From: Vulcanimicrobiota bacterium
GTDB taxonomy: Bacteria > Vulcanimicrobiota > Vulcanimicrobiia > Vulcanimicrobiales > Vulcanimicrobiaceae
DNA length: 64,000 bases
Direction: 5' to 3'
Assembly: GCA_963714015.1 (NCBI GenBank)
Contig: OY970223.1
Coordinates: 1,888,001-1,952,000 of the forward strand
Shown here: positions 5,007 through 30,988 of the stretch, piece after piece
How positions within the stretch are numbered: position 1 is the first letter of the stretch
How the letters are laid out: each line of letters starts with the position of its first letter
Notes under the pieces: model-generated
Seen by the model: the letters and a program-made list of their open reading frames with translations, nothing else
What the model was told of the DNA's origin: nothing
Databases searched by the model: none
Position numbers and translations under genes: made by a program

Positions 5007-6599
5007 TTACGAAATGGAACGCAGCCGGCGTCGCTTATGCGCCTGCTTCATTTCGTACATTGCGCGGTCGGCAGCCGCGAGCAGATCGTCGGGCGTCGCG
5101 GCATCGTGCGGAAAGAGCGCTACGCCGACGCTGACGCCGATGTCGATGTTTTTGCCCCCGACGGCGAGCGGCGTCACCAGAATGTTGGCCACTTTTTCGC
5201 GGAGAATTAGAGACCCTTCCGGCGACGTGTGGGCGATAATCGCGAATTCGTCACCGCCGAAGCGCGCCAGTTCGTCCGATTCACGTATTGAACCCTTCAA
5301 ACGCCTCGCGACGATACGCAGCACTTCGTCGCCGGTTTGGTGGCCGAATGAGTCGTTTACGTCCTTGAACCCGTCGAGGTCGACGAAAAGTATCGCGAAG
5401 ACTTCTTGGAATCGCTGTGCTCGGGTGACCGTCGTCTTCAGCCGCTCGTCGAAGGCAATGCGATTGAGCGCTCCCGTAAGCGGATCGAAATATGCCAGCG
5501 TCTGCAGTTCTGCGTTCCGCTGCTCGGTGCGCTGCTTGTCGAGGGCGAGCAATCGCATTCGCTCGACGACGCCGAGCGAAAGAATCAGGATTTGGATGGT
5601 CCACCCGGCAACGATTTGATCGGTGAATTGACCTATGGCGACCGGTACAAAGCCCACGAGGAAGATGCGCGCCGGAAAATCGTGACGCGCTCGAATGGAC
5701 GCGGCGACGATGGTCAGCGCCATTCCGGCAATCAACGATCCAAGCGACACCATCCCTAGCGCCGGCCACGTCCAGAGCGGGAACGCCAGAACGACGACGG
5801 TGGAGAAAACGGCAATCAGCAAGCCGTCGAGTAATTTCGAAGTGGCTCTGGTGCTCAGAAACGTGCGAATGAAGACCAGGAACGCGACAAACGATGCGGC
5901 GTTGAGAAAAGCAGCAACCCATGCGTTCAACGTGCCGTTCGGCCACAGATAGGCATCGCCGATGCCGCTGACGCCGAGCACGTACGCCGCGATGGAGACG
6001 ATGTACACGGCGAAGAGCGCGGCGCCGCGATCGCGCATCACCACCGCCATGTAGATGTTTGCTGCGCCTACGGCAAGAACGACGCCGAAAAACAGTCCGA
6101 GTATAAGGCGCGCGAGAAGCGCGCTGTCGGCGACTGCGCGCGCCGGTGCTAATTCAACCTGGAGCGGTTCTCCGGGATCGAGATGCAGGTGCACGTAGAT
6201 CGGCTCGGAGCCGGTACGCGCGACGTCGATCAGGGCCCCGACGCGAGGAAAGGCCGCCGGTTTTCGCGCCGCGGGCATTTCGGAGCCGGTCCGGTATTCA
6301 GTGTAACCACCGGGTCCGTTCGGCACGTAGATCTGCGCGAGCGGCAGATCCGGCGACAAAGCGAGGGCCCACATTGCCGGAGCATCCGGCGTCCGCTGCA
6401 CGGCAAAACGCAGCCAAAGATCTCGGCCGCGTGCCGTCCCGGTGAGCCGTTCATAAGGAACAAACCGGACGCGCCCCGCTAAGACGTCAGAAGCAGAGAC
6501 GTTTCCGTTTGCCGCCGCGGTTTGCGGTAATGCGTCGACAGCCTTGGCGTGCGGCGGTAAAAGGATCAATGCCAATGCCGCGATGACCGAGAGGTGCAC
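5007..6599 (-). CDS. Membrane diguanylate cyclase (7TM-DISM-like sensor + GGDEF)
   Basis: Signal peptide, extracellular domain, ~6-7 TM segments, DPLTGALNR, DLDGFKDVND, RESD I-site, intact GGDEF. Confidence 0.9.
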   Translation of the reverse strand: MHLSVIAALALILLPPHAKAVDALPQTAAANGNVSASDVLAGRVRFVPYERLTGTARGRDLWLRFAVQRTPDAPAMWALALSPDLPLAQIYVPNGPGGYTEYRTGSEMPAARKPAAFPRVGALIDVARTGSEPIYVHLHLDPGEPLQVELAPARAVADSALLARLILGLFFGVVLAVGAANIYMAVVMRDRGAALFAVYIVSIAAYVLGVSGIGDAYLWPNGTLNAWVAAFLNAASFVAFLVFIRTFLSTRATSKLLDGLLIAVFSTVVVLAFPLWTWPALGMVSLGSLIAGMALTIVAASIRARHDFPARIFLVGFVPVAIGQFTDQIVAGWTIQILILSLGVVERMRLLALDKQRTEQRNAELQTLAYFDPLTGALNRIAFDERLKTTVTRAQRFQEVFAILFVDLDGFKDVNDSFGHQTGDEVLRIVARRLKGSIRESDELARFGGDEFAIIAHTSPEGSLILREKVANILVTPLAVGGKNIDIGVSVGVALFPHDAATPDDLLAAADRAMYEMKQAHKRRRLRSIS

Positions 6600-15975: not shown

Positions 15976-16794
15976 ATGCCGTTTGTCGACTTTCACACCC
16001 ACACGACGGTTTCGGACGGCGTGTGGCAGCCGCACGAACTCTTCGCGTACGTCCGCGAAAGCGGGATCGAAGCATTCTCGCTGACGGATCACGACACGAT
16101 GGACGGCTATCCGCTTCCGGCGGACATTGCGCCTCGTGCAGTGCCGGGAATGGAAGTCGACACCAAGTGCAACGGCGTCACCGCTCATCTGCTCGTTTAC
16201 GGAATCGATTCGCTGGAGGCGCCGCTGCTGCAGTTTCTGCGGCGGCAGCGCGCCGCGCGACGGGAACGAATGGCCGACATGCTCGAGAAGCTCGATGCTA
16301 AGGGCATTCATTTAGACATGTCGGACGTCGAGGCTCAGGCCGGTAAAGCGGTGAGCTGAGGCCGGCCCCATTTGGCGCGCGCTTTGGTCGCGCGAGGCGT
16401 CGTTAAGGATACGCAGGAGGCGTTCGACAAGTATCTCGCGGACGATCAAGAGGCGTACGTGTCGCTCGATCGGCTCGACTCTTGGCGCGCGATCGAACTG
16501 GCTCACGAGTCCCGGGCCGTCGTCAGCGTCGCCCACCCATGCCGGCTGCGGGAACCGGCGTCACTCGAAGTGTTGCGCTTGGCCGGCGTTGACGGAGTCG
16601 AAGTACTGCATCCCTCCGCAGATACCTCAGCGCAAGCGGAACTGCGCGAATACGCCGCGCGGCACGATCTGCTCGTAACGGGCGGCAGCGATTTCCATGC
16701 ACCGGACAAAGGCTACACGCCCGGCGTACAGCTCGAAGCAAACCATGTCGAGCGGCTATTCGCTGCTGTAGCAGCGGCAAGAATACCCGCTTAA
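15976..16794 (+). CDS. PHP-domain phosphoesterase (frameshift near 16357)
   Basis: DFHTHTTVSDG, LTDHDT, GRPHLA across the shift, VAHP, TGGSDFH. Confidence 0.85.
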
Positions 16795-19005
16795 TACCTT
16801 ACGGCCGAGCGGTCGGCCCCGGGCTTGGCGTCGGCACGATAAACGGCGACGGGTTCGGGCGCAGGCGCCGGAAGAGGCTGCGGCGACGGTGAAGCGCTGG
16901 GCGAGGGCGATGCCTTTGGCAACGGCGATGGTGAGGGTGATGCCTTGGGCGTCGCTGCGGATCGAGGCGTTGGACTCGGCCTCGGTGATGCAGTGGCTTT
17001 GGGAGACGCGCTCGGCGTCGGCTTGACGCTCGGTTTCGGCGACGGCGTTGCTGCGGGCGCCGATTTTGTTTGAACGGCCTTCATCATTGCGGGCCGCGGC
17101 GAGGTCGACGGCGATGCCTTCGGCGAGGGCGATGGTAAGGGTGATGCCTTGGGCGTCGCTCGCGGCCGGGGCGACGGACTCGGCTTCGGCGATGCAGCCG
17201 CTTTGGGCAGCGCGGTAGGCGTCGGCTTGACGTTCGGTTTCGGCGACGGCACTGCTGCAGGCGCCGATTTTGTTTGAACGGCCTTCATCATTGCGGGCCG
17301 CGGCGAGGACGAGGGCGATGCCTTTGGCAAAGGCGATGGTGAGGGTGATGCCTTCGGCGTTGCTGATGGTCGGGGCGACGGGCTCGGCTTGACGCTCGGT
17401 TTCGGCGACGGCATTGCTGCCGGCGCCGATTTTGTTTGAACGGCCTGCCGCGTTACGTTGGGCACTGCGGCGTGCTTAACGAGCGCGGCATTCGTGGCGT
17501 CGGGCTTTGCAGCCGGTGAAGTCGAGGCTGCCGGTTTGGGAGTCGCGACGGTCGTCGGTTTCGGCATTGGTGCCGGAGTCGGAATCGGCTTGGCAGGCAG
17601 AGCCGCCTTAGCCGGCTGACCCGCTGCCGCCCGAGCTGCCCTATGCCGCGGAGGCTTCGTAGGCAGAACCATCGGCGGAATCGCTTCGTACCGCGCGCCG
17701 CAGGCGCCGGGGGCGATGGTGAGCAGATCCGCTGCATAGAGCAGCACGTTTTCCCGATCCACCGACACGGCCGTCTGAGCAGTGAGCACGTCGCTGCGAC
17801 GCGTGTGCACGTCCAGAAACTCGGCTTCGGGTTTCTCTCGAACGTATGCGTACGTCGACTGAGCATTCCGCAGATCTTGCTGCCGTGCAGTGACGTCGGC
17901 GCCGGCTTGGTTGAGCAGGGTTTCCGCGCTCTTGATATTGTCCAAGTCCGCATCGATCGACGCGGCCAGTTCGAGCTTGCGCTGCGTCTGGCGATAGCCC
18001 AATGCTTTTAGTTCCTCGAGATACTGCGCGCGCAGCGCGCGCTCTTCGTCGCGGCCGTGCGTGGGCAGCGCTACGCTGACCCCGACGTCGAGGCGATAGC
18101 CCGAAACTTGCGCGTTGATATCGGTTGTGGATCCGATTTCGGCGATCGTGCTGGCCGTGATGGACGAGCCTTTCACGCGGGCGAGTTCTTCGTTTACCTG
18201 AATGTCTTCCGCAGCGATTCCGGCCATTTGGGGATCGACCGCGTATGCCGATTGCAGCGCGCGGTCGCGATCGGGAGCGCAGCGATCGAAGAACGAGGGT
18301 ATGGCGGGCTGAAATTGTCCCATCTCGTAGCCGACCGCCGAACTGACGTTGGCGAGTTCGGACCGCTGGAGCGCCCGCAGACTAGCGACGTTGAACTGCA
18401 CTTTCTGCACGGACGAATTTATGTCCATGAGATCCGTGCCGGTGAAGAACCCGGTATGAAGCAGCGAACGGCCGGTCGTGATGTCGGACTGAGAGGCGCC
18501 GACGTACGCCTCGCCTACCCGGGCCTGATCGTCATAGCTCCAATACTCCGTGTAAGCCTTTCGAAGCGCCGCTATCTTCGCGCGCTGTAGCTGGTTGAGC
18601 TGAATGACGGCCAGCTGCTCCTGTTCGGCCGCGTCGATAATGGCCAGCTGCTGCTCGATCTTGGAGCCGAGAAGCGGCAGCGAAAGTCCGCCGCCCTGAT
18701 CGTACCGGAGCACGTGGTAGTCGAACGTCCGCGGAACGATGACGGCGGCCGGACCGAAGTCTGTCCGAATATTCGTAGGCAAGACCCGCCCTGTCTTCCG
18801 TTGCGCGGAGCGCCTGGGCCTTGGCTTCGATGGTGCTCTCATCGCCGCGCACGTCCGGCGCGTTCGCAATTTGCGCTTCCAGCGAATTGAGTGTGATGGT
18901 CGCCCGCTGCGCAAAAACGAGCTCCGGTGTCAGGAGCAACAGGCTCGAAAGCACGGCCAAAACTAGGGGCGCTCGAAGTAAACGTCGCCATAGCAGCATT
19001 GGCAC
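16791..19005 (-). CDS. TolC/outer-membrane-efflux-like protein with a long Pro/Ser/Lys/Ala C-terminal tail (frameshift near 18762)
   Basis: Signal peptide in ORF 18532..19005; two beta-strand plus coiled-coil modules (GLSLPLLG; VGVSVALP) in ORF 16791..18914. Confidence 0.65.
16860..17450 (-). repeat. Three imperfect coding repeats (AVQTKSAPAAxPSPKPxVKP...)
   Basis: GCCGATTTTGTTTGAACGGCC recurs near 17059, 17263 and 17425. Confidence 0.85.
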
Positions 19006-19129
19006 CGAACTTCTGCCGAGAGACGGTTGCCCCCTGGGGGAGGTTCGCGCGCGTACACCGAAGATATGAGGCGACGGCGCCGTATTTTACGGGCGGTCCT
19101 CCTTACATTCACTCGGTAGAGTCTGACAT

Positions 19130-20201
19130 ATGCGGCTACGTTCTTGGCGCGGCACCACGGTTGTAAGTCCCACACCGCGCCGCTCATTTCCATGGGTTCG
19201 GCTTCTGATTTTCGCGGCGGTGCTCGGCATCGCGGCTTATCTTATTATTCCGAACATCTACTACGTACGCGCGGACGCTCTCGTCCGGGGCGACTTGATA
19301 CCCGTGACGCCGGTCTACCGGGTCCGTGTCGACAAGCTGCTCGTTTCGTGCACGGATCGTGTCCACGCCGGCGAGCCGGTGGCGGTCATCAGCAACTTTT
19401 TGCTCCAGGCGGACTACACGCGGGAGTACCTGCAAGGGCTGCAGCAGTCGCAGATCGCCGGGATCGCGCTGGATCAGAACGTGGCGACGGCGCGTGAGAA
19501 CGCCGAGTCGCTCCATCAGCGCTACCTTCAGGCCGTTGCCGACGACCAGCGGCTGGAAGAGTCGTTCGGATCCTACGACAAGGCCTACAAAGCCGGCGCC
19601 ATTCCGCAGGTCGACTGGGCGGACAAGAAGGCCGAGATCGACGCATCCAAGGCCATGGTCCAAGCATCGCTTGACGCTTGGAAGCGGGCTCAACTGTTCG
19701 TCGCGCAAGTAACGGCTACGCAGACGACCAAGATCTCGTCCGACCAGGCACTCCTCCAGCAGGCGCAAACCGTTGCGAACCGCGTTGGGCAAGAGAAGTC
19801 TGTTCGCACCGGTAAGCGGTGACATCGTCGAGTGCATCGAGCGTCCGCAGAACGTCATTGAAGCGGGAACGCCGCTCTTCAGCATCTTCCAACCCGATCG
19901 CGCGTACATCGTTGCCTATTTTTCGCCGAACGCGGTCGCCAAGGTGCACATCGGACAGTCCGCCGACGTGAACATCGCCGGCCTCCCGAATAGCGTCAAG
20001 GGTCGCGTCGCCTGGATTTACCCCAACCTCGACGCGCTGCCGCCCGAGCTGACCCGGTTCTTCTGGCAGCACGTGCAGTTCTCGCAATACCGGCCGGTCA
20101 AGATCGCCCTCGACCGTCTGCCCGAATCGGACCGGAGCCAGCTCTACTACGACGCGCAGGCACGCGTGAGTATCAGCGTGTCCGGTCAGAAGCTGCAATG
20201 A
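19130..20201 (+). CDS. HlyD/membrane-fusion-protein family (frameshift near 19797)
   Basis: N-terminal TM, lipoyl half motif (DRVHAGEPV), long coiled coil, APVSG..., VHIGQSADV...GRVAWI. Confidence 0.8.
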
Positions 20202-20830
20202 ACGGCGACAGCAATCAACGACTGCTCCAGGTTCTCGCGCTGGTTCCCAAGGATTCCCATCTGGATCCCCACTGGGAGCCGCGCGCGCCGGCCGGAGCCA
20301 CCTATGGGGACGCCGTTGCCGGCTTAGATCCGGACCAGGTCGCCCAGGACCTCGAGACCCTCGCTGACCGCGGCTATGCGGAACGGATATTCGTCGAACG
20401 CCTAATGATCTGTCCGTCCTGCTCGAGTCATGCGGTCAACGTTCACGAGTCGTGCGTCACTTGCAACTCGTCCAACCTCGAGTCGATCACGTCGTACTTC
20501 CATTTCCGCTGCGGTTTCATCGGACCGGAAAAGGCGTTTACGAAAGAACCCGCCGGCCTGCGCTGCCCCAAATGCAAGAAGTACCTGGTCGACGTGGGAA
20601 CCGATCACGATAGCCCTGGGGTCTTTTTCGAGTGCAAGAATTGCGCTGCGATGTTCCAGCAGCCGAATATGGGCGTGCGGTGCCTGGGATGCGGCGCGCG
20701 ATTCACCGGCCTGGCCCTGCAGGATCTCAAACACCGCGACGTCTACGCGTACCGGCTGCTGCTTCGCGGCCAAAATGCGCTCGCAAACGGAGCGCTGGAG
20801 ACCAGCGACCTGAATGCTCGATCTCTTTAA
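20198..20830 (+). CDS. Multi-CxxC Zn-ribbon protein (TackOD1-like)
   Basis: CPSC, CVTC, HFRCG, CPKC, VGTDHDSPG, CKNC, CLGC; start and stop overlap both neighbours. Confidence 0.7.
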   Translation: MNGDSNQRLLQVLALVPKDSHLDPHWEPRAPAGATYGDAVAGLDPDQVAQDLETLADRGYAERIFVERLMICPSCSSHAVNVHESCVTCNSSNLESITSYFHFRCGFIGPEKAFTKEPAGLRCPKCKKYLVDVGTDHDSPGVFFECKNCAAMFQQPNMGVRCLGCGARFTGLALQDLKHRDVYAYRLLLRGQNALANGALETSDLNARSL

Positions 20831-22114
20831 TCGGTTACTGACAAGCCTCGACAACTTCTACATTTGGAACGCGTTCCTCGCCGTTCCGCACCTGCTGTAC
20901 AGCACGAGTCTGATCTTCTGGCTCGTCGTGTTCCTGGTTGTGCGCTTCGAAACTCCTAACTTCGCGTTGTACGTCGCCTACTTGGTGAATCGTAAGGCAT
21001 TCGAGCCGCCGCCCCTGCGGCGTTTCGCGAACAATCAGCCGCTGATCTCGTTTCTTATCGCCGGACGCAACCCGGGCGCGAGCATCATCTCGTGCATCGA
21101 ATCGATTCTGGCGAGCAACTACAAAAACATCGAGATCATCTTTGCCGACGACAAGTCCACCGACAATAGCGTCGAGCTGGCGCGCAAATTCGAGTCTTCC
21201 GGCAAAGTCCGCGTCGTCGCGAATGCCAACCACAGCGGAAAAGCCGCCGGGCTCAATCTGGCGCTGATGTTCGCTCGCGGAGAGTTCGTTTTCATCCTCG
21301 ACGCCGACAGCTGGTGTTTCCCGACACCGTCGACAATATGCTGCCGTATTTCGAGGACCCGAAGGTCGGCGGCGTCTCACCGAGCATTTTCTGCCGCAAT
21401 CCGTTCGATAGTTTCTGGACGCGGTGCCAGCAGATCGAATACGTCATGGCGTACGTCATGAACCAGCTCTGGCGCGACAAACTCGGAGTCATCGCCACCC
21501 TCTCCGGAATGGGGACGCTCTTCCGGATGGAGGCCATCAAGCACATCGGCGGCTGGGACATGGGATTGGGCGACGACACGGACAGTACGATCCGGTTGCG
21601 CAAAACGCATTGGACGCTGCACACTTCGCTGCGCGGGCATATCCTGACCGAATGTCCCAAGACGCTCAGCCATCTCTGGAGCCAGCGTTCGAGGTGGACC
21701 CGCAACATGGTCAAACAGCGGATGCGTAAGCACCGCGATTTGGGGACGTTCCGCTACGGGTTCAGGAACGGCCTGATGTTCTGGGACATGACGTTCAATC
21801 GCATCGTCCACCCGTATCTGCTGGTGGGGCTGCCGCTGCTCGCCTTCTTTCTGAAGACTCCCGACATTCCGGTCATAGCGGGCGGACTGTACGCCTTTAC
21901 GACCATCATTTTTACGCTCGAATTGCTGATGGCCCGCGATATGACGCGGCGCGATCCCTCGATGCAGAATTTTCTGCTGATGCCAATCTACGTTCTCTAT
22001 CGCATTCCGCTGCTGACCGTTCGGCTCGTTCAGATTACCCGCGAGCTGCTGATGATCAAGCCATGGCATCCCTACGTTCCACGCCGGGTGTGGGACGCGA
22101 TCCCGTTCCACTAG
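20814..22114 (+). CDS. Processive GT2 glycosyltransferase / polysaccharide synthase (frameshift near 21312)
   Basis: DDKSTD, GKAAGLN, DAD, GDD, QRSRW (QxxRW); TM helices at both ends. Confidence 0.88.
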
Positions 22115-22151
22115 AGTAGTTTCAGGACTCGCCGGCCCCGGTCACCCCGCC

Positions 22152-23465
22152 CTAAGGCGAGGTGATCGAGAACAGCGCGTTGCCGTTGCTGCGAATGTTC
22201 AGGACGCCGTTTGGAGCATACGACCGGATATCCGTGGCGAACGCCTGGTACGTCGGTGACGTTGAAATCGAGTCGTACTGGAACGACTGATTGTTGTCTT
22301 CGTACCATGAGATTGCGTGAAGGTGCGGATACGGCGTGTTCGGCGAGGTCAGTACCGAGAACATCGCGTCGATCCACGCAGCCTTCATGGCACCGCCGTC
22401 GCCATATTCGTTTGAGGCGGTTTCCGTGACCATAATCGGCTTGTTTTCGGTAGCTTTGATCGCGTAGTTGTACGCGCCGCCCATCATGAACGTGAACGCG
22501 TACCACCTGCGTCCATTGTTGTAGCTGCCCATGTTGTAGCCGTCCAGCGCAACCCAGTCAACGTAGGAGTCGCCGGGGTATGCTGCCGGAGGCTCGTTCC
22601 ACGATTCGACCGGGCTCGTGCCGCTGTTGAAGCACCAGATGAACTTCACGTTCGAGGCGCCTACTTGACGGAAGATCGTGACGACATGCTGCCAAGCCGC
22701 GATAAAGTTGGCGTCTGCAACCGGCCCCGCGCCGTTCTGCGGTAGTCCCCATGCATACCGCGTCGTGTTGAACTCGTGGAAGAGCCGGATGAACACGGGC
22801 TGTCCGAACGCCTTCAGCGTCTGTGCGGAAGCGGTGATGTACGAGTCATAATCGCCGGCCGCGATCCCGGCAAGCGTAACCGTCGAATGAGCCGACTGTG
22901 CCTGCCACGTGATGTCGGGGATCGTATTTTGAGCCTCCATCGCCGCCAGCGCGTTCTGAGAGATGACGTTCGTCATTGCCTCGTCCCACGTCGAGTACAC
23001 CGTGCCGATCGCTATCCCGTGCCGCATGACGGAGGGAAAGTTTGTGCACGTAAGTGCAGCCCACAGGCCGCAATCGGCGCCAAGGAAAATGCCGGACGTG
23101 GAGTTACTTGGGTCCGGTAATATCGGCAAACCGTTGGGGTTGAATGTCGGCACCGGGCTAGGCGTGGGGCTCGGCGCATTCGTCGGCCAGGGTGTGCCGG
23201 TGGGCCAGGGTGTGCCGGTCGGCCAGGGGGTGCCGGTGGGCCGGGGGGTGCTCGTCGGCCACGGGCTGCCGGTGGGCCGCCAGTTCGGTGTAGAAGTCGG
23301 GGAGGGGCTCGGCGTGGTGCTCGGACGCGCCGATGGGAAACTTTGGCCAAGGCCGGCCGTCGATGCGCCTCCGGTGCTGGGGATACCGGCTCCGCCGCCG
23401 CCGCATGCGGTCAGAATCGTTGCGGCCAGGGCTAGGGTCAATACACTTCTCGTCTGTCTGCTCAC
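22152..23465 (-). CDS. GH26 glycoside hydrolase lipoprotein with Pro/Thr linker
   Basis: Lipobox ILTAC; PTGTPW repeats; [29 protein letters not shown]. Confidence 0.85.
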
Positions 23466-23548
23466 AAACGAGTAATCGGCGTCTTAATGTTTTTGGTGTA
23501 GTCGCTTTACAAATTCTTAAGGGTTGGTACTCCTCAATACCAAACGAG

Positions 23549-23578
23549 AAGCGCCCCGCGAATCCGCGAGGCGCTTGG
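23549..23578 (-). terminator. Probable terminator after the sulfotransferase
   Basis: Minus strand AAGCGCCTCGCG-GATT-CGCGGGGCGCTT followed by CTCGTTT. Confidence 0.55.
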
Positions 23579-23600
23579 AACGGTTGCCTAATCCCGCGGC

Positions 23601-24317
23601 TTAGACGCCGACGCAAACCTCGTATTTCGAACACTCTTGCTTGAAGATTTCCTTTGCCTTGGCGTAGAGCTCGACGTCTTGCGCTCGATACTTGTTGACC
23701 AGTCTGCGCACCTCGTCGCTTACTTCGAAGGCGCCGCCAACGCGCTTGGTTACGTTGGCAAAACGCGGCGGTCCAAGGTCGTGCCGGAACCGCGCCTTGA
23801 AGAGTTCCCAGCTCTTCTCGTATTCCTCGTAGAGGCCGACGAAGGCGAATTCTTCGATGGGAACGCTGCCCACGAACTGCGATTGGTGATCGTGGTAGAA
23901 CAGCCACTTGAAGTGTTCTTCGAGCGTGGGGCGCAGCTCTTGCCAGTAACGGACCTCAGCGTGAACCTCCTTGTTCGCATCGCTCTTGCGATCGGTCAGC
24001 GCGCTTTGCCAGCGCCAGTGCGAAATCGACTGCTGCGCCGGTTCGCGCACGAACGTGACGTATTCGGCTTGCGGGAAGAGACCCACGTACTTGTCTGCGC
24101 AAAAATGTCCGTGTATGACATCGTAATTCTCGAGCAGCTCTTCGCGCCGAGCGCGCATTGCAGCCATCCGCAGGTCGCGGCGGCGGTTGGCGAACGGCTC
24201 GTCGAAACCGACCCAGTCCCCGTAGTCGCGGAAGACGCGCTCGACGTCGTATGCATCCATCAAGGCCTCACGAAACGAATTTCCGGCGGTCTTGGGGATG
24301 TGGATTGAAAGTAACAT
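23601..24317 (-). CDS. PAPS-dependent sulfotransferase
   Basis: 5'-PSB motif IHIPKTAGNS, GHF, 3'-PB motif VREP...SISHW, C-terminal N...DVELY. Confidence 0.85.
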   Translation of the reverse strand: MLLSIHIPKTAGNSFREALMDAYDVERVFRDYGDWVGFDEPFANRRRDLRMAAMRARREELLENYDVIHGHFCADKYVGLFPQAEYVTFVREPAQQSISHWRWQSALTDRKSDANKEVHAEVRYWQELRPTLEEHFKWLFYHDHQSQFVGSVPIEEFAFVGLYEEYEKSWELFKARFRHDLGPPRFANVTKRVGGAFEVSDEVRRLVNKYRAQDVELYAKAKEIFKQECSKYEVCVGV

Positions 24318-24347
24318 AGGCTCGTTCAATGCTCTCTTTCGGTGTGA

Positions 24348-25373
24348 TTATGGTACGGGCTGCGCCCCGGCATTCGTCGCTTCCGCGGCGCGGAGAGCGC
24401 CGGTCAAAGCTGTTCGGATGATTGCGTCGATCTCCAGGTAGCGCGGCTGCCACCCCAGCGTGCGATTTGCAAGCGATGCATCGGCAACGAGAACCGGCGG
24501 ATCGCCTTCGCGGCGAGGTCCGGCGCCGTGCGGGACCCGGCGGGCGGCGACGCGTTCGACGCTGCTCAAAAGTTCTTTGACGGACGTGCCGCGACCGGTT
24601 CCCAGATTGAGCGTGAGAACGCCGGCGTTGTTCTCGAGGTGCTTGAGCGCGAGCATGTGCGCTTCGGCCAAATCGTCGACGTGGATGTAGTCGCGAATGC
24701 AGGTTCCGTCGGGCGTGTTGAAGTCATCGCCGAAAATCGTAAACGGTTTTCCGCCCAATGCGGCGCGAATAGCCAGCGGAATAGCGTGGGTTTCGGGATC
24801 GTGCAGCTCGTAAAGATCGTGCGTCTCGCTGCTTCCGGCGGCGTTGAAGTAGCGCAGCAGCGCGAAACTCATTCCGTAGGCGGCGGCAAAGTCGCGCATC
24901 ACGTGCTCGATCATCAGTTTGGAACGGCCGTAAGGATTGATAGGCCGTTCGTCCATGGTTTCGTCGAGGTGCTTGCCCTCGGGCGGTATGCCGTACGTCG
25001 CGCACGTTGAAGAGAACACGACGCGCCGCACGCCGCTATCGCGAAGCGCGGTGAGCAGCCGGCACGTTTGAACCACGTTGTTTTCGTAATACAGACCCGG
25101 ATCGACGACCGATTCTCCGACTGCGGCGAACGCCGCAAAATGGACGACGCCGGTTACGTTGTGGCGGCGCACCGTATCGCGGATCGCTTCGACGTCTCCG
25201 ACGTCGGCGCGAACCAGTTTGCCGGTGGGAACGAACGTCCCGTTAGAACGGCTGAGGTTGTCCACGACGACGTACGGAACGCCGCGATCCTGAAGAAGGG
25301 CGGCGAAGTGCGACCCGATGTAGCCGGCCCCTCCCGTGACTAGGAGCGAGCCGCCCAGGTACGCGTTTTCCAT
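24348..25373 (-). CDS. galE: UDP-glucose 4-epimerase
   Basis: VTGGAGYIGSH, HFAA, FSSTCATYG, YGRSK, LRYFNAAG, DGTCIRDYIHV. Confidence 0.93.
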   Translation of the reverse strand: MENAYLGGSLLVTGGAGYIGSHFAALLQDRGVPYVVVDNLSRSNGTFVPTGKLVRADVGDVEAIRDTVRRHNVTGVVHFAAFAAVGESVVDPGLYYENNVVQTCRLLTALRDSGVRRVVFSSTCATYGIPPEGKHLDETMDERPINPYGRSKLMIEHVMRDFAAAYGMSFALLRYFNAAGSSETHDLYELHDPETHAIPLAIRAALGGKPFTIFGDDFNTPDGTCIRDYIHVDDLAEAHMLALKHLENNAGVLTLNLGTGRGTSVKELLSSVERVAARRVPHGAGPRREGDPPVLVADASLANRTLGWQPRYLEIDAIIRTALTGALRAAEATNAGAQPVP

Positions 25374-25379
25374 GTTCGC

Positions 25380-27041
25380 TTAAGCCCCCGAGGAGAGCCC
25401 CGAAACGATCCGCGCGAGCACCTCGTGGGTTGCGGCGTCCATTCCAAAGAACTCCAAATGATACTGGTACCAGCCGTTGTCGGCGATGCGGTGGTCTACC
25501 ACCCGCGCCTGGAGCACGACTTCGTCCGTGACGCTCGCTCCATGCACGTGCGGAGCCTTGAACCGGACTTCAACACGCGAGCCGATGGGCAGCATGTCAT
25601 CGGCGGCCATGAGCAATCCGCCGGCCGAGATGTTTTTCATACGAGCGGAGCGGCGCGCCGAGATCGACGTCTGATACGTCATGGCCAAGTCGGTGCCGAT
25701 GCGCACGCTGGAGCGCGCGTCGGTTTCGGCGGAATCCCATGAAACCGAACTAATGAGCAGCGCACCGCTAGTGCGGTGGCTCGAGGGATCGACGACGATC
25801 ATCGAACCCGCGGTACGGTTCGTCTGGTAAAGGTCGACCGGAAGCGCTTCCTGCGTTTCGAAGGTGACGTAACCGATCTCGTTTACTTCGAGCGCGTGCG
25901 CAGCAGTGCGGTCGAGCGTGTGAATGTCCAGGCAGCTCTCGATGCTGACGATGCGTCCTTGAATCCAGCGCGAGCCGTGACGGATCCAGTACTTGCGGCC
26001 AATCTGCGCGGGTTCGGTGTCCATCCACGCAAGTGCAGCGGAGAAACGCTGCGTGCTGCGTACAGTGTGCGGCGTCGATATCCAGTTTCCGCGCGCCACG
26101 TCCACGTGGCGATCGAGGACGAGTCCGGCCGATTCGCCCGCTTGAACGATTTCCACGCGGTCGCCGGCGCGCCGCACTTCGACTACCGTTGCAGATTCGT
26201 TGCTCGGGAATATCTGCACGCTATCGCCGCGCTGCACGCTGCCGCCGCAGACCCGTCCCCACACGACGCGGGTATGGTTGCTGCCCGTAGCGGGATCGCG
26301 CGAGACGTATTGCACCGGCATGAGGAAATTGCCGTCTTTGGTGCCGTCCTCTTCGACCGGAAGACATTCGAGCAATTCGAGAAGCGTCGGCCCGGTATAC
26401 CAGTCCAATCCGCCGCGCGTCGTTACGTTGTCGCCGTTCAGCGCGGAGATCGGCACGATTGCCCGCACCGGAATTCCGGCGGCGCCGCTGAGCTGCAGCA
26501 GCGCTTCGCAGACGGCCTCAAAGCCTTCACGCTGGTTGGGAATAGCGTCGATCTTATTGACGGCGAACACGATGCTCGGGATGCGCAAGAGGTGCGCGAG
26601 AAGCGTATGGCGGCGCGTTTGAGCGAGCAGCGTAACGGGACGTTTGCTCACATCGAGTTTCGTGATGTCGACCAGCACCACGGCCGCGTCGCTTCCGGTG
26701 GCCGCCGTAACCATGTTCCGCGTGTACTGTTCGTGCCCCGGCGCGTCCGCGATGATGAACTTGCGCTGGCGCGTCGAAAAATAACGGTACGCGACGTCGA
26801 TGGTGATGCCTTGCTCGCGCTCGGCCTCCAATCCGTCGGTCAGCAGCGCGAGATCGATCTCCTGACCGTTACTGCTCAAACGGCCAAGCTGATCCGCTAG
26901 AATCGCTTGACATTCGTACAACAATCGGCCCGTGAGAGTGCTCTTCCCGTCGTCCACGCTCCCGGCCATCAGAAACCGCAACGCGCGGTCTTCGCCCGGA
27001 CGGTTGTTGCCGGCGGGGACAGCGTTCATCATAACCACCAT
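25380..27041 (-). CDS. cysN: Sulfate adenylyltransferase GTPase subunit fused to a C-terminal PilZ domain
   Basis: GSVDDGKSTL, EREQGITIDVAYRYF, DAPGHEQYTRNM, NKID; last ~110 aa carry RSSVR (RxxxR) and NISAGG (D/NxSxxG). Confidence 0.9.
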   Translation of the reverse strand: MVVMMNAVPAGNNRPGEDRALRFLMAGSVDDGKSTLTGRLLYECQAILADQLGRLSSNGQEIDLALLTDGLEAEREQGITIDVAYRYFSTRQRKFIIADAPGHEQYTRNMVTAATGSDAAVVLVDITKLDVSKRPVTLLAQTRRHTLLAHLLRIPSIVFAVNKIDAIPNQREGFEAVCEALLQLSGAAGIPVRAIVPISALNGDNVTTRGGLDWYTGPTLLELLECLPVEEDGTKDGNFLMPVQYVSRDPATGSNHTRVVWGRVCGGSVQRGDSVQIFPSNESATVVEVRRAGDRVEIVQAGESAGLVLDRHVDVARGNWISTPHTVRSTQRFSAALAWMDTEPAQIGRKYWIRHGSRWIQGRIVSIESCLDIHTLDRTAAHALEVNEIGYVTFETQEALPVDLYQTNRTAGSMIVVDPSSHRTSGALLISSVSWDSAETDARSSVRIGTDLAMTYQTSISARRSARMKNISAGGLLMAADDMLPIGSRVEVRFKAPHVHGASVTDEVVLQARVVDHRIADNGWYQYHLEFFGMDAATHEVLARIVSGLSSGA

Positions 27042-27044
27042 TGA

Positions 27045-28003
27045 TTAGAAATAGCCTTCGAGTTTGCGCCGCTCCATTGAAGCTTCGGAGGTGCTGTCGT
27101 CCATACGCGTAGCGCCGCGTTCGCTGACAGTCACCGAAACGGTCTCGGCGATGATTTCCTGCGGAGTCGAAGCGAAGCTCTCGACACGGGACAGGTGCAC
27201 GTCATGTCACCAACGGTGCGGAATCTCACGGAGACGCTTTCAGGCCGTTCGAGCGGCTGAAGCGGTGTAATATCCGTGATCGGCACGAGAAGATCGCGCC
27301 GGCGCACGACCGGACGCATGTGCGAGTAGTAGAGAGAGGGCAGCGCAATTTCTTCGCGGGCGATATAGAGCCACACGTCCAACTCGGTCCAGTTCGAGAT
27401 CGGGAACGCGCGCATATGTTCGCCCGGGCGAACGCGCGTGTTGAAGAGCGTCCACAACTCGGGGCGCTGCTCTTTGGGCCGCCATTGTCCGAAACGATCG
27501 CGATGCGAGAAGATGCGCTCTTTTGCGCGAGCCTTTTCTTCGTCGCGGCGCGCGCCGCCGATCAGCACGTCGAAGCGATGCTCCTCGATCGTTTCGAGCA
27601 GCGTCACTGACTGATGGCTGTTGCGGCTTTCGAGCGGATGCGAAAGGCGAACCGTTCCGCGCTCGATGGAATCCTGAAGGCTGCCCACGATGAGGCGTTC
27701 TCCGGTTTCCGCGACGCACCAGTCGCGGAATTCGATTACTTCCGGGAAATTATGACCCGTGTCAATGTGCACGAGCGGGAACGGCAGCGTTCCGCGATAG
27801 GTACCGTCGGCATCGCGGTGCTTGAACGCCTTTTCCGCAAGGCGAAGCACGACGCATGAATCTTTGCCGCCGGAGAACAACAGTGCGGGCCGTTCGAAAG
27901 CACCCGCGACTTCGCGCAGGATGAAAATCGCCTCTTCCTCGAGCCAATCGAGATGGCGAACGTTAAGCGGCGAAGTCTGCTCAACAGTAAGAGCTGCGTC
28001 CAT
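27045..28003 (-). CDS. cysD: Sulfate adenylyltransferase subunit 2 (frameshift near 27183)
   Basis: LFSGGKDS, GGARRDEEKARAKER, QRPELW, VRFRTVGD; shifted frame ends SMERRKLEGYF*. Confidence 0.94.
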
Positions 28004-28460
28004 CGTAAATTGTCGCGTCCTAACGAATGAAAGGAGATGCGGTCATCTGCGCCTTTTCCGGCATACACTCCTGCCCGATGCCCTCGTTACAAGTAGTCCA
28101 TTCGGCACGTTCGCTGTTTAGACTTTACGCTCCTAATATTAGGCGTTTGCACCGTTGCGTCGGCATATATGGCTTTTACATCTTCGGCATTGCCTGCGCA
28201 ACAGATTAGAATCGCCGCTATCTCGGCTTTCCTTATATCTCGGCTTTCCTTATATATGGGAATAGCTCCCAATCTCGTCATGAAGTCAAGACCGTGCAAC
28301 GGCAATAGTGAAAAAATACTAGTGACAAGCTAGGCTTTACGCTTGATTGACACTTCACGGCGCGATTGATATCGTAGCCGCACGAAGCCCCAAACGGGTT
28401 TTGCCGCTCGTATCTGCGGCGTTTACGGCAGATGCGGGCCACGGTTTCCGTAGGGAGCAC

Positions 28461-29240
28461 ATGAACGCAGAGCTCATTGCCATAGGATTTGTGGTAGGGA
28501 TCCTCGTCGGCCTCACCGGTGTGGGTGGAGGCAGCATTATGACGCCGCTCCTGATTGCGCTGAACATTCCGCCGCTGGCCGCGGTCGGAACCGACCTGTT
28601 GTACAGCGCCCCCACGAAGGTCTTTGGAGCCTATCTGCACCATCGTCAGCGAACCGTGAATTGGCGGCTGGTGGGTGCCTTGACGACCGGCGGCGTACCG
28701 GCCGCCATCGTGGGCGCACTAACGCTGGTATGGTTGCGCGGCCATGTCGCCCTGAGCGTGCTGCAGAGTTTCACGAAGCACGCGGTGGGCGCGGCGCTCG
28801 TCATTTCCGCGGTCATCATCATGGTGACGCCCTGGCTGCTCAAGGGTCAGGATCGGACCTCCGGCAACATCGAGTGGAATCGGGCCAGGCGTTGGAAGAC
28901 CATCACGATCGGTGCCGCGGTCGGCCTCATCGTGACGGTGACCTCCATCGGCAGCGGTTCGGTCACGCTTCCGATGCTCGCTCTGGTCTTGCCCGCAGCG
29001 GGCCTACAAACATTGGTAGGAACGGATATCGCTTTTGCCGCAATTCTCATACCAACCGCATTTCTGAGCCGGTGGTCGATGGGCGGCGGCGTCAACATTC
29101 CGCTCGCGGTCAACCTGATCGTCGGGTCCATGCCCGGGGTCTTCATCGGTACGAAGCTGTGCGGATTTCTCCAGCAGCGTTACCTGCGTCCCGCACTCGC
29201 TTTGACGCTCGTGGTCGTGGGCGCGCGAATGGTCGTCTAA
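28461..29240 (+). CDS. TauE/SafE (TSUP) family sulfur-compound transporter
   Basis: GLTGVGGGSIMTP, AVGTDL, TSIGSGS, LVGTDI; multiple TM helices; GGGAG RBS. Confidence 0.88.
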   Translation: MNAELIAIGFVVGILVGLTGVGGGSIMTPLLIALNIPPLAAVGTDLLYSAPTKVFGAYLHHRQRTVNWRLVGALTTGGVPAAIVGALTLVWLRGHVALSVLQSFTKHAVGAALVISAVIIMVTPWLLKGQDRTSGNIEWNRARRWKTITIGAAVGLIVTVTSIGSGSVTLPMLALVLPAAGLQTLVGTDIAFAAILIPTAFLSRWSMGGGVNIPLAVNLIVGSMPGVFIGTKLCGFLQQRYLRPALALTLVVVGARMVV

Positions 29241-29260
29241 GAACAGGAAGTTCACAGCAC

Positions 29261-29809
29261 TTGAAACGAGGATTCACCGTTTGGCTCACCGGCATGTCCG
29301 GCGCGGGCAAGAGTTCGATTTCCGAAAGACTCGCTGCAGAACTCGCCGCCCGCGGTGAGAGCGTCGAAGTGCTCGACGGCGACGAGGTCCGTACGCACCT
29401 TTCAAAGGGCCTGGGTTTCAGTCGCGAGGACCGCGACGTCAACATCGGCCGCATCGCGTTCGTCGCCTCGCTGCTGGTCAAGCACGGCGCCGCCGTCATT
29501 ACCGCCGCAATCTCGCCCTATGCTCAGGCCCGTGAAGCGGCGCGGAAGCAGATTGGCGACTTTCTCGAGGTCTACGTCCGCTGCTCGATTGAGGAACTCG
29601 CGCGTCGCGACGTCAAAGGCCTTTACAAGAAGGCAATCGCCGGCGAGATCGGTCAGTTCACCGGAATCTCCGATGAGTATGAGGCACCGCAAAATCCGAA
29701 CGTGACGGTCGATACGGAGTTGGAAACGATCGAAGAGAGCGTCTCCAAGATCATCGCGGCGCTGGAGGAGCGCGGGTACTTGCGGGCGGGCGAGCAAGCC
29801 CGCACCTAA
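29261..29809 (+). CDS. cysC: Adenylyl-sulfate kinase
   Basis: WLTGMSGAGKS, LDGDEVR, LGFSREDR, RDVKGLY, FTGISDEYEAP; TTG start. Confidence 0.94.
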   Translation: MKRGFTVWLTGMSGAGKSSISERLAAELAARGESVEVLDGDEVRTHLSKGLGFSREDRDVNIGRIAFVASLLVKHGAAVITAAISPYAQAREAARKQIGDFLEVYVRCSIEELARRDVKGLYKKAIAGEIGQFTGISDEYEAPQNPNVTVDTELETIEESVSKIIAALEERGYLRAGEQART

Positions 29810-29881
29810 CGTCCCGCGGCTATCGTCATCCGGTCCCCATCGGTAATGCCGTGGCCGTTACCATCGACGTTTACGTGAAGT

Positions 29882-29915
29882 AAGAAAGGCCTCGCCGGGG
29901 CGAGGCCTTTCTTTT
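29882..29915. terminator. Bidirectional terminator
   Basis: AAGAAAGGCCTCGCC-GG-GGCGAGGCCTTTCTT between convergent genes. Confidence 0.8.
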
Positions 29916-29931
29916 AGGCAGCAGCGTTACG

Positions 29932-30894
29932 CTACTGTTTGCACGCGCCGAGTTTGTTGCTCCACAACGGCTGCGTCGGGAACGTTCCGGTGGAGAACTT
30001 CGTGTTTTGCAGATCCTGCCAAGCGCACGCGTCGCCAATCTCTCCGAGCGGTCCGTTCCAGCCGCTAAAGGGCTGCGGATCGGTCTCGGTCTCGCCCTGT
30101 TCGTGTCCTTCGACGATCGACACGCCGTCATCGGTTCCGGGACTGTTCACCGAACCGGCGCCGCACGCTTGACCGGGATCGGGCATGTACGGCAAATTGG
30201 TGAACGCGATCGGGTTGCCGTTCTCGGTCTCATTGCTGTGCCACGCGCAGTATTCCGTACCGAAACCTGCCGGCAGGATGCCGTGCGGCATCGCAACGAC
30301 GTAGCTGGCGCTGTTCGTGTAGTCGCCGAAGTGTTTGGCAGCGCGCGCGGCTTCTGCGCCGATTTGCCCGTCGGTCGGCGACTGCGGCGGTTGATTCGCA
30401 CTATCCACATAAGCTCCGGCAAGGGTGGTAGTGTTCTTGATGAACGTCTTGACAGGTCCGTAGTACTGCGTGAGGGTGCCGGTCCATTGACTCCCATTCA
30501 GTCCCTTGGTAAACGTCCTGAGCACTTTTTGGACTCCGTCGGGATCGCCGCTCTTGCTGCTCCACGCCTTGCCCCAGAACACGATGTACATCTTTGGGCT
30601 GGCCTGAATCGGGCCGCCGCCGTAATTCAGATTGTCCGATTTCGACGGCGCGATGAGGCCCAGCGTTTGTGCGCGCGCGTAATCCTGACGCGTCGGAAAA
30701 TACGACGCCGTCATGCCGTTGTCGAGCACTTTGGTGAAGACGCTTTGCGTCGTACGCGCCGACGGAACGATGCGCCCGCCGCCTACCGACGACGGAAGAT
30801 TTTGCGTTTGCGGAATTGCGGCGCTGTGTTGGCCGCAAGCTGCCAGCATCGACGCAGCCGCCGCGAGCGCGGCAAATTTGGTCACTCTATGCAC
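29932..30894 (-). CDS. Lipoprotein with Phi-1/EXORDIUM-like domain, paralog 1
   Basis: Lipobox MLAAC; LNYGGGP, YIVFWG, YCAWH, HEQGETETDP, EIGDAC, QPLWSN. Confidence 0.7.
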   Translation of the reverse strand: MHRVTKFAALAAAASMLAACGQHSAAIPQTQNLPSSVGGGRIVPSARTTQSVFTKVLDNGMTASYFPTRQDYARAQTLGLIAPSKSDNLNYGGGPIQASPKMYIVFWGKAWSSKSGDPDGVQKVLRTFTKGLNGSQWTGTLTQYYGPVKTFIKNTTTLAGAYVDSANQPPQSPTDGQIGAEAARAAKHFGDYTNSASYVVAMPHGILPAGFGTEYCAWHSNETENGNPIAFTNLPYMPDPGQACGAGSVNSPGTDDGVSIVEGHEQGETETDPQPFSGWNGPLGEIGDACAWQDLQNTKFSTGTFPTQPLWSNKLGACKQ

Positions 30895-30988
30895 GAAGAA
30901 AAACCCCTTCAAACTAACGGTTTCAGAGAAAAGTATCTCTGACGTTTCTCTGCGTTCGAGGGTGTCCTTCGAGTGAGGACTAGTATCT

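Follow-up and report, generated by a model that had tools for sequence, protein, structure and literature searches.

What is made by a locus in which genes for a membrane polysaccharide synthase and its putative exporter adjoin genes for sulfate activation and a sulfotransferase? The question is raised by a 64,000-nt stretch of Vulcanimicrobiota bacterium contig OY970223.1 (assembly GCA_963714015.1, positions 1,888,001 to 1,952,000; hereafter the window), in which a single block encodes a TolC-like outer-membrane factor, a HlyD-type adaptor, the zinc-ribbon protein TackOD1, a family 2 glycosyltransferase (GT2), a family 26 glycoside hydrolase (GH26), a sulfotransferase, GalE, the enzymes that make 3′-phosphoadenosine 5′-phosphosulfate (PAPS), a TauE-family permease and a PHP-family phosphoesterase (Table 1). 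With moderate confidence we read this locus as a synthase-dependent sulfo-glycan secretion system that is linked to cyclic di-GMP (c-di-GMP) and has a dedicated supply of activated sulfate. Judged from family matches and gene linkage, PAPS can be made by the encoded CysD/CysN and CysC, and an enzyme of the carbohydrate-O-sulfotransferase type is co-inherited with the GT2 module; from these we infer that the product is a sulfated polymer.

The closest relatives of the window, by protein and by locus, bear names such as Vulcanimicrobiaceae, Baltobacteraceae, Candidatus Eremiobacteraeota and WPS-2, and we accordingly assign it to Eremiobacterota. The recurrence of this gene company in relatives carries the argument. 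TackOD1 scores above its cut-off in 15 of 401 Eremiobacterota genomes, at 16 loci (G000 denotes the window's own genome, and G001, G024 and so on the other genomes of the survey; the tally of 15 includes G241). Fifteen of the 16 loci were examined, the remaining one lying in a genome flagged as unpublished. Thirteen have a HlyD-TackOD1-GT2 core, and two are of a different TackOD1 type without a HlyD match. A sulfotransferase gene occurs in ten of the 13 core genomes, on the same contig within 10 kb of the core in eight (G000, G002, G146, G289, G297, G357, G363, G377) and on another contig in two (G001, G024); the preliminary description of the locus had staked its proposal on such linkage in related genomes, and the linkage is there. 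In the three other core genomes (G017, G029, G319) a gene resembling UDP-sulfoquinovose synthase (417-434 bits; cut-off 575) abuts HlyD directly upstream. The gene company extends beyond the sulfotransferase. TauE is linked at 7 of the 13 core loci and CysC at 6, a PHP gene lies beside the PAPS genes at 4, and ATP sulfurylase is present as CysD plus CysN in three genomes (G000, G001, G297) and as Sat in two (G319, G363). PAPS supply thus recurs beside the core by way of non-orthologous enzymes, CysDN or Sat. GH26 is found in 8 of the 10 sulfotransferase-type genomes and in none of the 3 sulfoquinovose-type genomes, and in G001 the contig with the sulfotransferase begins with a cut GH26 gene, the gene that follows GT2 in the window. 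Because gene order and orientation vary between genomes, the linkage is not that of one inherited block.

Counting from the sulfotransferase gives a similar picture. Homologues at E 1e-20 or better occur in 23 of the 401 genomes (G223 included), and those of at least 49% identity in 11, of which ten carry the core; the eleventh genome is 72% complete. The sulfotransferase gene of G363 (G363:C80:6994-7665) has one in-frame TAA in that assembly. The second type of TackOD1 locus (L028, G364:C72; L029, G289:C22), with much higher TackOD1 scores (182-190 bits) and frames of about 490-507 aa, adjoins a distant GT2 and a TolC-like gene and has no HlyD match.

Genes in the window were identified from an open reading frame (ORF) listing together with Pfam and NCBIfam scans. 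As extended here, the block spans 15976-29809 and begins earlier than the position 16791 given in the preliminary description, with the PHP-family gene. The four parts into which that description had divided it are all present: a TolC-like gene divergent from a translationally coupled HlyD, zinc-ribbon and GT2 (QxxRW) operon; a GH26 lipoprotein; a minus-strand series of sulfotransferase, galE, cysN(PilZ) and cysD, in which the sulfotransferase is recognized by profile and model and the rest score above their cut-offs; and a divergent tauE-cysC pair. Its statement that the block lacks an ABC transporter, Wzx, Wzy, CysH and sulfite reductase also agrees with the Pfam and NCBIfam scans, which found none of them there. 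Across 15976-30912 no ORF matched a Pfam or NCBIfam model for a Wzx flippase, Wzy polymerase, Wzz or priming transferase.

Table 1. Predicted genes of the locus, in window positions, with family evidence (score vs cut-off where given) and lesions in the assembly
Feature	Position	Strand	Evidence	Lesion
PHP-family phosphoesterase, candidate 3′,5′-bisphosphate (PAP) phosphatase	15976-16794	+	Pfam PHP 26.8 bits	in-frame TGA at 16357-16359 (Leu in the G001 homologue)
TolC-like outer-membrane factor, signal peptide	16791-19005	-	homologues pass Pfam OEP; two frames	1 extra nt at ~18760 (located against G001)
HlyD-type membrane-fusion (periplasmic adaptor) protein	19130-20201	+	HlyD_3 46.6 bits; HlyD_D23; RND_mfp and EmrA models	1 extra nt at ~19795 (intact in G001, 355 aa, one frame)
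TackOD1, short form of 210 aa with a multi-Cys zinc ribbon	20198-20830	+	PF18551 136.6 bits vs 32	
Membrane GT2 synthase, ~443 aa	20814-22114	+	Glycos_transf_2 82 bits; Glyco_trans_2_3 59.8 bits; Glyco_transf_21	1 missing nt at ~21311 (vs intact relatives)
GH26 lipoprotein, lichenase-like	22152-23465	-	PF02156 37.6 bits vs 20.2; lipobox LTAC by eye	
Predicted cytoplasmic PAPS-dependent sulfotransferase, 238 aa	23601-24317	-	divergent Sulfotransfer_2 / HS6ST-HS2ST-like; ATG at 24317	
GalE, UDP-glucose 4-epimerase	24348-25373	-	TIGR01179 359.1 bits vs 262.3	
CysN (GTPase subunit of ATP sulfurylase) with C-terminal PilZ	25380-27041	-	TIGR02034 416.2 bits vs 336.1	
CysD	27045-28003	-	NF003587 374.4 bits vs 195; ORF as assembled ends 27131	2 extra nt at ~27178 (absent from short-read contig)
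TauE/TSUP-family permease, proposed sulfate importer	28461-29240	+	PF01925 149.9 bits	
APS kinase CysC	29261-29809	+	NF002059 251.2 bits vs 244; TIGR00455 208.1 vs 138.7	

The window sulfotransferase has no Pfam match of its own, and distant homologues carry Sulfotransfer_2 (PF03567). A 25-sequence profile matches the heparan sulfate 6-O (5t03, E 1.4e-12) and 2-O (4ndz, E 5.8e-8) sulfotransferases, with the PAPS-binding loop HIPKTAGNS aligned with HIQKTGGTT and the REP..Q..S region with RDPVSRYLS of 5t03; K9, G12, R91 and P93 are invariant in the 25 homologues. With the AlphaFold model (pLDDT 92) as query, almost every top Foldseek match is a sulfotransferase, HS6ST and HS2ST coming first (probability 1.0, TM-score 0.51-0.55), such that loop, 3′-phosphate motif and fold are all in evidence. 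Its nearest solved relatives and its gene linkage point to a carbohydrate acceptor. The protein is probably cytoplasmic, because no signal peptide is visible by eye.

The enzymes of PAPS synthesis (CysD, CysN and CysC) all score above curated family cut-offs; CysC starts at TTG 29261 or ATG 29294. The TauE gene is linked to CysC, Sat or CysDN at the seven core loci where it occurs and again in a second PAPS locus of the same genome. This second set (G000:C1:2816024-2820016, locus L012) comprises cysD, a cysN-cysC fusion that is split in the assembly, and a TauE-like gene. The genome, a single 3.56-Mb contig, has two members of the PAPS_reduct family, both of them cysD, and no NIR_SIR sulfite reductase, Sat or CysH was found in it. 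Because these three are missing from the genome, PAPS would not go to cysteine synthesis; the preliminary description had likewise assigned it to decoration. The second cysD sits in a sugar-modification locus, and therefore both PAPS factories of the organism lie in glycan loci. The second set adjoins RmlA, a NeuD-type acetyltransferase, a WecE-type aminotransferase and a PEP-CTERM-system ATPase, and suggests a second sulfated glycan.

Sulfotransfer leaves 3′-phosphoadenosine 5′-phosphate (PAP), an inhibitory by-product, and the PHP protein is a candidate for its removal. Homologues of the PHP gene adjoin Sat, TauE or CysD in G363, G289 and G001, and their profile matches PDB entries 9etk, 7ug9, 3e0f and 2yb1 at E of about 1e-41 to 1e-49 (2yb1 8.5e-41). 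Of two homologues tested with NCBIfam, one has the 3′,5′-nucleoside bisphosphate phosphatase model NF041577 as its best match and the other the RNase RNM model NF047791. Beyond cysC, window 29932-30912 (minus strand) encodes a lipoprotein-like 326-aa protein without a family match; G001 has a 61%-identical counterpart some 4 kb past its cysC.

The HlyD, TackOD1 and GT2 frames overlap by 4 and 17 nt, with the TackOD1 start inside the HlyD stop region. The window copy of the TolC-like gene matches OEP only at E 0.013; intact homologues score 40.8, 32.4 and 30.3 bits (cut-off 22), and homologues overall, which are 28-48% identical, score 30-68 bits. By tblastn, the TolC-like gene is linked to HlyD at 12 of the 13 core loci, G024 giving no match within its contig. 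The locus therefore encodes, side by side, the HlyD and OEP-family proteins of a tripartite envelope-spanning exporter. The TolC-like protein ends in a tail rich in Pro, Ser, Ala and Lys that makes up its C-terminal third and is encoded by 2.4 copies of a 204-nt repeat (16902-17390); the G001 and G002 homologues also have long tails, an unusual appendage for an outer-membrane factor.

The GT2 protein has the DxD and Q(R/Q)xRW motifs of synthase-dependent systems (DAD at 21300; QRSRW at 21683-21697), with Q301, R302 and W305 invariant in 17 homologues, and hydrophobic stretches are visible by eye. The profile of its family can be aligned with hyaluronan synthase over positions 75-408 of 434 and with BcsA over 12-371, through the membrane part in both. 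The best NCBIfam model for the intact G001 protein is PgaC_IcaA (117.7 bits, far below cut-off).

TackOD1, whose function is called obscure in the one paper that we found on the domain, has conserved CxxC and HFRCG motifs. Structure prediction of the complex of GT2 and TackOD1, with the G001 pair given as alignments, yielded an ipSAE of 0.64 (runs 0.55, 0.64 and 0.71) with a partner pLDDT of at least 79, and runs agree in at least 95% of contacts; the best of 3 controls gave 0.00. Of 157 solved complexes 116 attain this mark, as do 2 of 215 mismatched pairs, counts that are rough with own alignments. The interface sets the invariant HFRCG stretch of TackOD1 against the cytoplasmic domain of GT2. 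TackOD1 is thus predicted to dock on GT2 as a cytoplasmic partner, which gives it a first testable role, that of synthase partner.

For the nature of the polymer, the most informative gene is GH26. By phmmer the protein matches the GH26 chains of Endoglucanase H (CtLic26A) over nearly its whole length at E 6.5e-29, and mannanases and xylanases at 1e-3 or worse. The glutamate motifs of the family are present (FHEFN aligned with LHEAN, VTETAS with IAEFAS); we take the Endoglucanase H domain to be a beta-1,3-1,4-glucanase and these glutamates to be catalytic. A Pro/Thr linker is encoded by an 18-nt repeat (five copies, 23185-23278). Together with the GT2 profile alignment and the use of UDP-glucose as substrate by sulfoquinovose synthase, the lichenase-like GH26 makes a beta-glucan-like backbone most likely. 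The preliminary description had called the polymer mannan- or glucan-like on the strength of GH26, and of these only glucan is favored. It had also proposed galactose from GalE; the enzyme is confirmed, and since galE accompanies the locus in this genus alone (G000 and G001), the galactose content is uncertain. The genome also holds a row of four GH26 paralogues (G000:C1:3435697-3440401) beside a gene for a secreted protein of about 275 aa, of unknown family, with a lipobox and a DNEHW motif; members of this secreted family lie inside or beside the core at 13 other loci and are unlinked to it in G000, and may be a second glycanase of the system.

The sulfoquinovose-type loci belong to a wider family. 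A scan with the TackOD1 alignment (one genome per species) returned 38 loci; 12 resembling loci already examined were left out and 26 were examined. Their titles name Gamma- and Alphaproteobacteria, Planctomycetota, Nitrospinota and other groups, and six are shorter than 3 kb. By tblastn, HlyD is present at 19, GT2 at 17, and a sulfoquinovose-synthase-like (SQD1-like) gene lies within 10 kb at 13, whereas sulfotransferase, GH26, CysD, CysN, CysC and TauE were found at none of the 26. Eight of the 13 SQD1-like genes were checked with NCBIfam (136-450 bits, one split in two pieces), and UDP-sulfoquinovose synthase is their best and almost only model. In six Gammaproteobacteria-labelled contigs (or families of the class) the order is SQD1-like gene, unknown secreted protein, HlyD, TackOD1, GT2, TolC. 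The Azospirillum oleiclasticum locus has SQD1, HlyD and TackOD1 and no GT2 match, and we do not rely on it as a cultured model.

A maximum-likelihood tree of 25 GT2 sequences (midpoint root; excluded were the split GT2 of the window and three loci in which no ORF is intact) divides along the same line. Six GT2s of the sulfotransferase type group together with support 100/100, within the sulfoquinovose type. The sister of this clade is G319, which has both an SQD1-like gene and TauE-CysC-Sat; two other sulfoquinovose-type Eremiobacterota branch next, then proteobacterial clades, and the more distant GT2s linked to TackOD1 lie outside all of these. No SQD1 orthologue is present in the window's genome, where the best match is 24% identical. 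The tree suggests that the sulfotransferase type derives from the wider sulfoquinovose-linked family, which would then document a natural swap between two chemistries that place a sulfo group on a sugar.

Several genes near the SQD1-like genes deserve mention. In G319 a 498-aa protein without a Pfam or NCBIfam match is encoded between Sat and the SQD1-like gene (L031:3706-5202) and could be a link from activated sulfate to sulfite. In G017 a cysteine dioxygenase gene (L007:11964-12587) lies directly upstream of the SQD1-like gene and core, a possible route to sulfite from cysteine. An alphaproteobacterial SQD1-like gene is in two pieces about 2.4 kb apart (L079:14133-14903 and 17312-18037; model positions 3-190 and 192-374), which looks like interruption by an insertion. 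The slot between SQD1-like gene and HlyD in Gammaproteobacteria-labelled contigs is filled by a secreted family of about 300 aa (L065:7768-8748; also L060, L063, L064 and L066), a member of which follows TolC in G017 (L007:18466-19458); it has no Pfam or NCBIfam match and is not GH26. We had considered GH26 a core part of the whole family and dropped this, since the apparent link had arisen by single-linkage clustering through one fused or mis-called 661-aa ORF, as direct BLAST revealed, and the alignment lacks the GH26 motifs.

The connection to c-di-GMP is through CysN, whose C-terminal PilZ domain (about 25404-25715) scores 40.7 bits against a cut-off of 22.5. It contains RSSVR followed by NISAGG, in keeping with the pattern of RxxxR and, some 20-30 residues on, (D/N)xSxxG. 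By eye we had taken RRSAR for the RxxxR motif; the alignment places the conserved motif further upstream, at RSSVR. Among 41 relatives the CysN-PilZ fusion occurs in three, which belong to a single genus (G010, G021, G023 and G036 are among the negatives). R26, R30, N53, S55, G57 and G58 do not vary among these fusions, whose PilZ domains are only 40% identical. A HMMER search of 1.84 billion representatives with the PilZ tail gave 52 matches, one with the CysN-PilZ layout (fusions to an unrelated PilZ could escape such a search), and a word-based search found two fusions. If it binds the messenger, the fusion would put sulfate activation under c-di-GMP control, a new kind of target. A possible local source of c-di-GMP is encoded 10 kb from the locus, as a fusion of a 7TMR-DISM sensor with a GGDEF diguanylate cyclase (window 5007-6599, minus strand).

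Outside the window, c-di-GMP-related domains occur on TackOD1 itself. Long TackOD1 forms (330-370 aa) have an extra C-terminal domain with sub-threshold GGDEF and PelD_GGDEF matches. Its model (mean pLDDT 75) has a GGDEF fold, with 71 Foldseek matches at E 1e-3 or better; the matches listed are GGDEF-domain proteins (probability 1.0, TM-score 0.55-0.67). The GGDEF motif is lost, and an RxxD motif five residues upstream is present in 8 of 8 Proteobacteria-labelled forms and 0 of 3 Eremiobacterota forms; RxxD with a lost GGDEF motif is the arrangement of PelD. The window TackOD1 is the short form without the GGDEF-like domain, and so has no PelD-like receptor. On a Sulfuricella-labelled contig the core operon is followed immediately downstream by a PAS-GGDEF gene.

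From these parts we propose the following course of events. The TauE-family permease would import sulfate, CysD/CysN-PilZ and CysC would convert it to PAPS, the cytoplasmic sulfotransferase would use the PAPS, and the PHP-family phosphatase would clear PAP. GalE may adjust the UDP-hexose pool. GT2, with TackOD1 on its cytoplasmic domain, would polymerize and translocate the chain, the HlyD adaptor and TolC-like channel would take it across periplasm and outer membrane, and the lichenase-like GH26 lipoprotein would trim or release it. Binding of c-di-GMP to the PilZ domain of CysN would tune PAPS supply, such that sulfate activation follows a biofilm signal. Because the sulfotransferase appears to have replaced an enzyme acting on a nucleotide sugar, sulfation of a donor or primer would be most economical. 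A broader version, which we offer only tentatively and think doubtful in its entirety, holds that HlyD-TackOD1-GT2-TolC is an undescribed, multi-phylum, c-di-GMP-linked synthase family secreting sulfo-beta-glucans. The sulfo group would enter as UDP-sulfoquinovose in most lineages; one Eremiobacterota clade would have swapped to a sulfotransferase with private PAPS, acting on a nucleotide sugar or primer to give a 6-O-sulfo analogue of sulfoquinovose, and in the present genus the c-di-GMP input would have moved from the GGDEF-like tail of TackOD1 to the PilZ domain of CysN. If true, a second messenger gates sulfate activation itself.

Five lesions fall within about 14 kb of the locus, as judged against intact genes of the same genus (Table 1). 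The frameshifts that the preliminary description had suspected are now placed as 1-nt indels at three sites and a 2-nt insertion at the fourth, in cysD. HlyD and GT2 are unbroken in G001 and G024, and the broken genes keep 70-80% amino-acid identity to the intact G001 genes on either side of each break. The 2 nt at 27178 in cysD are missing from a short-read contig of a soil run containing a near-identical strain; omitting them restores the CysD-typical C-terminus ...SERGATRMDD...RKLEGYF, with a stop just before the cysN start. A short-read contig also lacks 1 nt at 16850 in the TolC-like gene. We checked four long essential genes elsewhere in the assembly: rpoB and rpoC (G000:C1:2035484-2038733 and 2063474-2066972) are split between two frames, the second piece of rpoB holding 2 internal TGA, and uvrA and secA are whole. 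Since rpoB and rpoC are likewise split and the short-read contig restores cysD, the lesions are probably indel errors of a long-read assembly and not biology, an extrapolation for the sites 18760, 19795 and 21311. Such errors would be genome-wide, and therefore any broken gene in this assembly needs checking.

Other explanations must be set against a secreted, sulfated glycan. The locus could be a decaying remnant in this organism, with real frameshifts in the TolC-like, HlyD, GT2 and CysD genes and a real PHP stop. The density of lesions speaks for decay, as does a marker-based completeness of only 89.6% for a one-contig genome, and among the contig pieces listed no cover is shown for 18760, 19795 and 21311. 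We think decay very unlikely in view of the same manner of splitting in rpoB and rpoC, the near-identical strain's cysD and the identity to G001 that persists across each break. Ordinary sulfate assimilation for cysteine, beside a polysaccharide operon by chance, is barely credible: cysE, cysS and a Cys/Met PLP enzyme do lie in the same window, but no CysH, sulfite reductase or Sat was found in the genome, which does encode CysC and a sulfotransferase, and many other genomes show the linkage with other enzymes in place. The polymer might also be unsulfated, the sulfotransferase and PAPS genes serving another acceptor (lipopolysaccharide, protein or a small molecule) and their adjacency being regulatory or historical. 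Sulfotransferase homologues in genomes without TackOD1 are compatible with this, as is the second cysD-cysNC-TauE set in another sugar locus, which implies that the organism sulfates more than one target. We nevertheless regard an unsulfated polymer as distinctly unlikely, given that 10 of the 11 genomes with a sulfotransferase of at least 49% identity have the core, the gene order around it taking several forms, that an SQD1-like gene replaces the sulfotransferase beside HlyD where the latter is missing, and that the GT2 tree divides along this very line.

The closest competitor in kind keeps the sulfo group and changes the product: GT2 would make an oligosaccharide or glycolipid that is sulfated or sulfonated, be it a periplasmic glucan, a sulfolipid or a signal like a Nod factor, and HlyD and TolC would move it out. 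A cytoplasmic sulfotransferase suits a short soluble or lipid-bound acceptor, as with NodH, the best-known role of sulfoquinovose synthase is in making sulfolipid, and GT2 matches Glyco_transf_21. We consider this alternative unlikely. A secreted lichenase-like GH26 is linked in most sulfotransferase-type genomes, the GT2 profile follows hyaluronan and cellulose synthases through the membrane part, the Pfam and NCBIfam scans found no acyltransferase, deacetylase or ABC exporter in the block, and the layout of GT2, adaptor and TolC is that of a mixed-linkage glucan machine, as far as the available text of that report describes it (PMC13438883). Several findings weigh against the reading that we favor, a sulfo-glycan secretion system. 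GT2 also matches NodC (59 bits), HpnI (40 bits) and ceramide glucosyltransferase (E 1.6e-9). The sulfotransferase appears cytoplasmic while known synthases extrude the chain during synthesis, which makes the site of polymer sulfation hard to place. Thirteen of the 23 genomes with a sulfotransferase homologue lack TackOD1, 12 of these 13 homologues being at most 47% identical. The two PHP homologues score 142-150 bits for NF041577 (cut-off 400) and about equally, 140-156 bits, for NF047791 (cut-off 375), the SQD1-like genes, at 307-450 bits, all score below the curated cut-off of 575, and some TackOD1 loci have no GT2 or HlyD match (L067, L068). The binding of c-di-GMP is suggested by motifs alone, and only one of the five lesions, that in cysD, is contradicted by independent data among the contig pieces listed. 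The pathway of synthesis, sulfation, trimming and export that the preliminary description had drawn up thus stands in its enzyme identities, its linkage and the lack of an assimilatory use, and its sulfated product continues to be an inference.

If the favored reading is true, the locus offers a compact, few-gene and transferable synthase route to sulfated glycans with its own PAPS supply, and sulfated polymers are made also by barely cultured soil phyla. As far as the accessible portions of two reports go, sulfated bacterial polysaccharides are known almost only from cyanobacteria, and their clusters are Wzx/Wzy-dependent (PMC8205485, PMC13390465). The literature that we found, which left subscription journals uncovered, describes no exopolysaccharide system of the present kind in Eremiobacterota, no other role for TackOD1, no such system joining sulfoquinovose with an exopolysaccharide or GT2 or with c-di-GMP, and, by title or abstract, no CysN-PilZ fusion; the earlier impression that the combination is not a described system is in line with this.

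The architecture is closest to BgsA-BgsB-TolC of Sinorhizobium meliloti, which, according to the part of its description available, makes a mixed-linkage beta-glucan under c-di-GMP control and combines a processive GT2, a membrane-fusion protein and TolC, as here (PMC13438883). A beta-glucan product also fits the lichenase-like GH26 of the present locus. In S. meliloti TolC is a housekeeping gene outside the locus, whereas here a TolC-like gene lies within it, and the same partial account gives BgsA-BgsB no TackOD1, sulfotransferase, PAPS genes or dedicated hydrolase, all of which are present here. The GT2 is a small PgaC/hyaluronan-synthase-like enzyme, unlike BgsA. BgsA itself presumably binds c-di-GMP. 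In Alg8-Alg44, which also pairs a GT2 with an adaptor-like protein, a PilZ domain on Alg44 receives c-di-GMP and controls polymerization, and export is by AlgE/AlgK; here PilZ is on the sulfate-activating enzyme and export would be of the TolC type. The polysaccharide synthases of Pel and of Listeria Pss are switched on by a c-di-GMP receptor, PelD or PssE, whose GGDEF domain is degenerate and has an RxxD site. A PelD/PssE-like domain is present in the long TackOD1 forms and absent from the short form of the window, where the c-di-GMP domain is instead PilZ on CysN; the zinc ribbon has no counterpart in PelD or PssE.

The private PAPS supply and sulfotransferase are closest to NodPQ and NodH. 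In rhizobia, NodC-NodH-NodPQ unites a GT2, a cytoplasmic PAPS-dependent sulfotransferase and a private CysD/CysN(C) that serves solely to make PAPS for glycan sulfation. The Nod system makes a short lipo-chitooligosaccharide, which leaves through an ABC transporter, and has no adaptor/TolC, hydrolase, TackOD1 or c-di-GMP link; we saw no NodA, NodB or NodIJ in the block. In the known pathways with a UDP-sulfoquinovose synthase, SQD1/SqdB serves sulfolipid and Agl3 serves archaeal N-glycans, the sugar reaching lipids or protein glycans by way of GT4, GT8 or an oligosaccharyltransferase, whereas the relatives described here pair the synthase-like gene with GT2, HlyD and TolC. Two sulfated exopolysaccharide clusters, synechan (xss) of Synechocystis with sulfotransferases (PMC8205485) and the putative wps-1 of Actinoplanes with sulfotransferases and GH26 (PMC13390465), are Wzx/Wzy-dependent, and the portions of these sources at hand report no PAPS genes of their own for either; the present locus has its own PAPS genes and a synthase, adaptor and TolC in place of Wzx, Wzy and Wzz. 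Judged from sequence, then, the GT2/adaptor/TolC and the PAPS-plus-sulfotransferase parts resemble known systems, and what appears to be new is their combination, the proposed role of TackOD1 and the fusion of CysN to PilZ.

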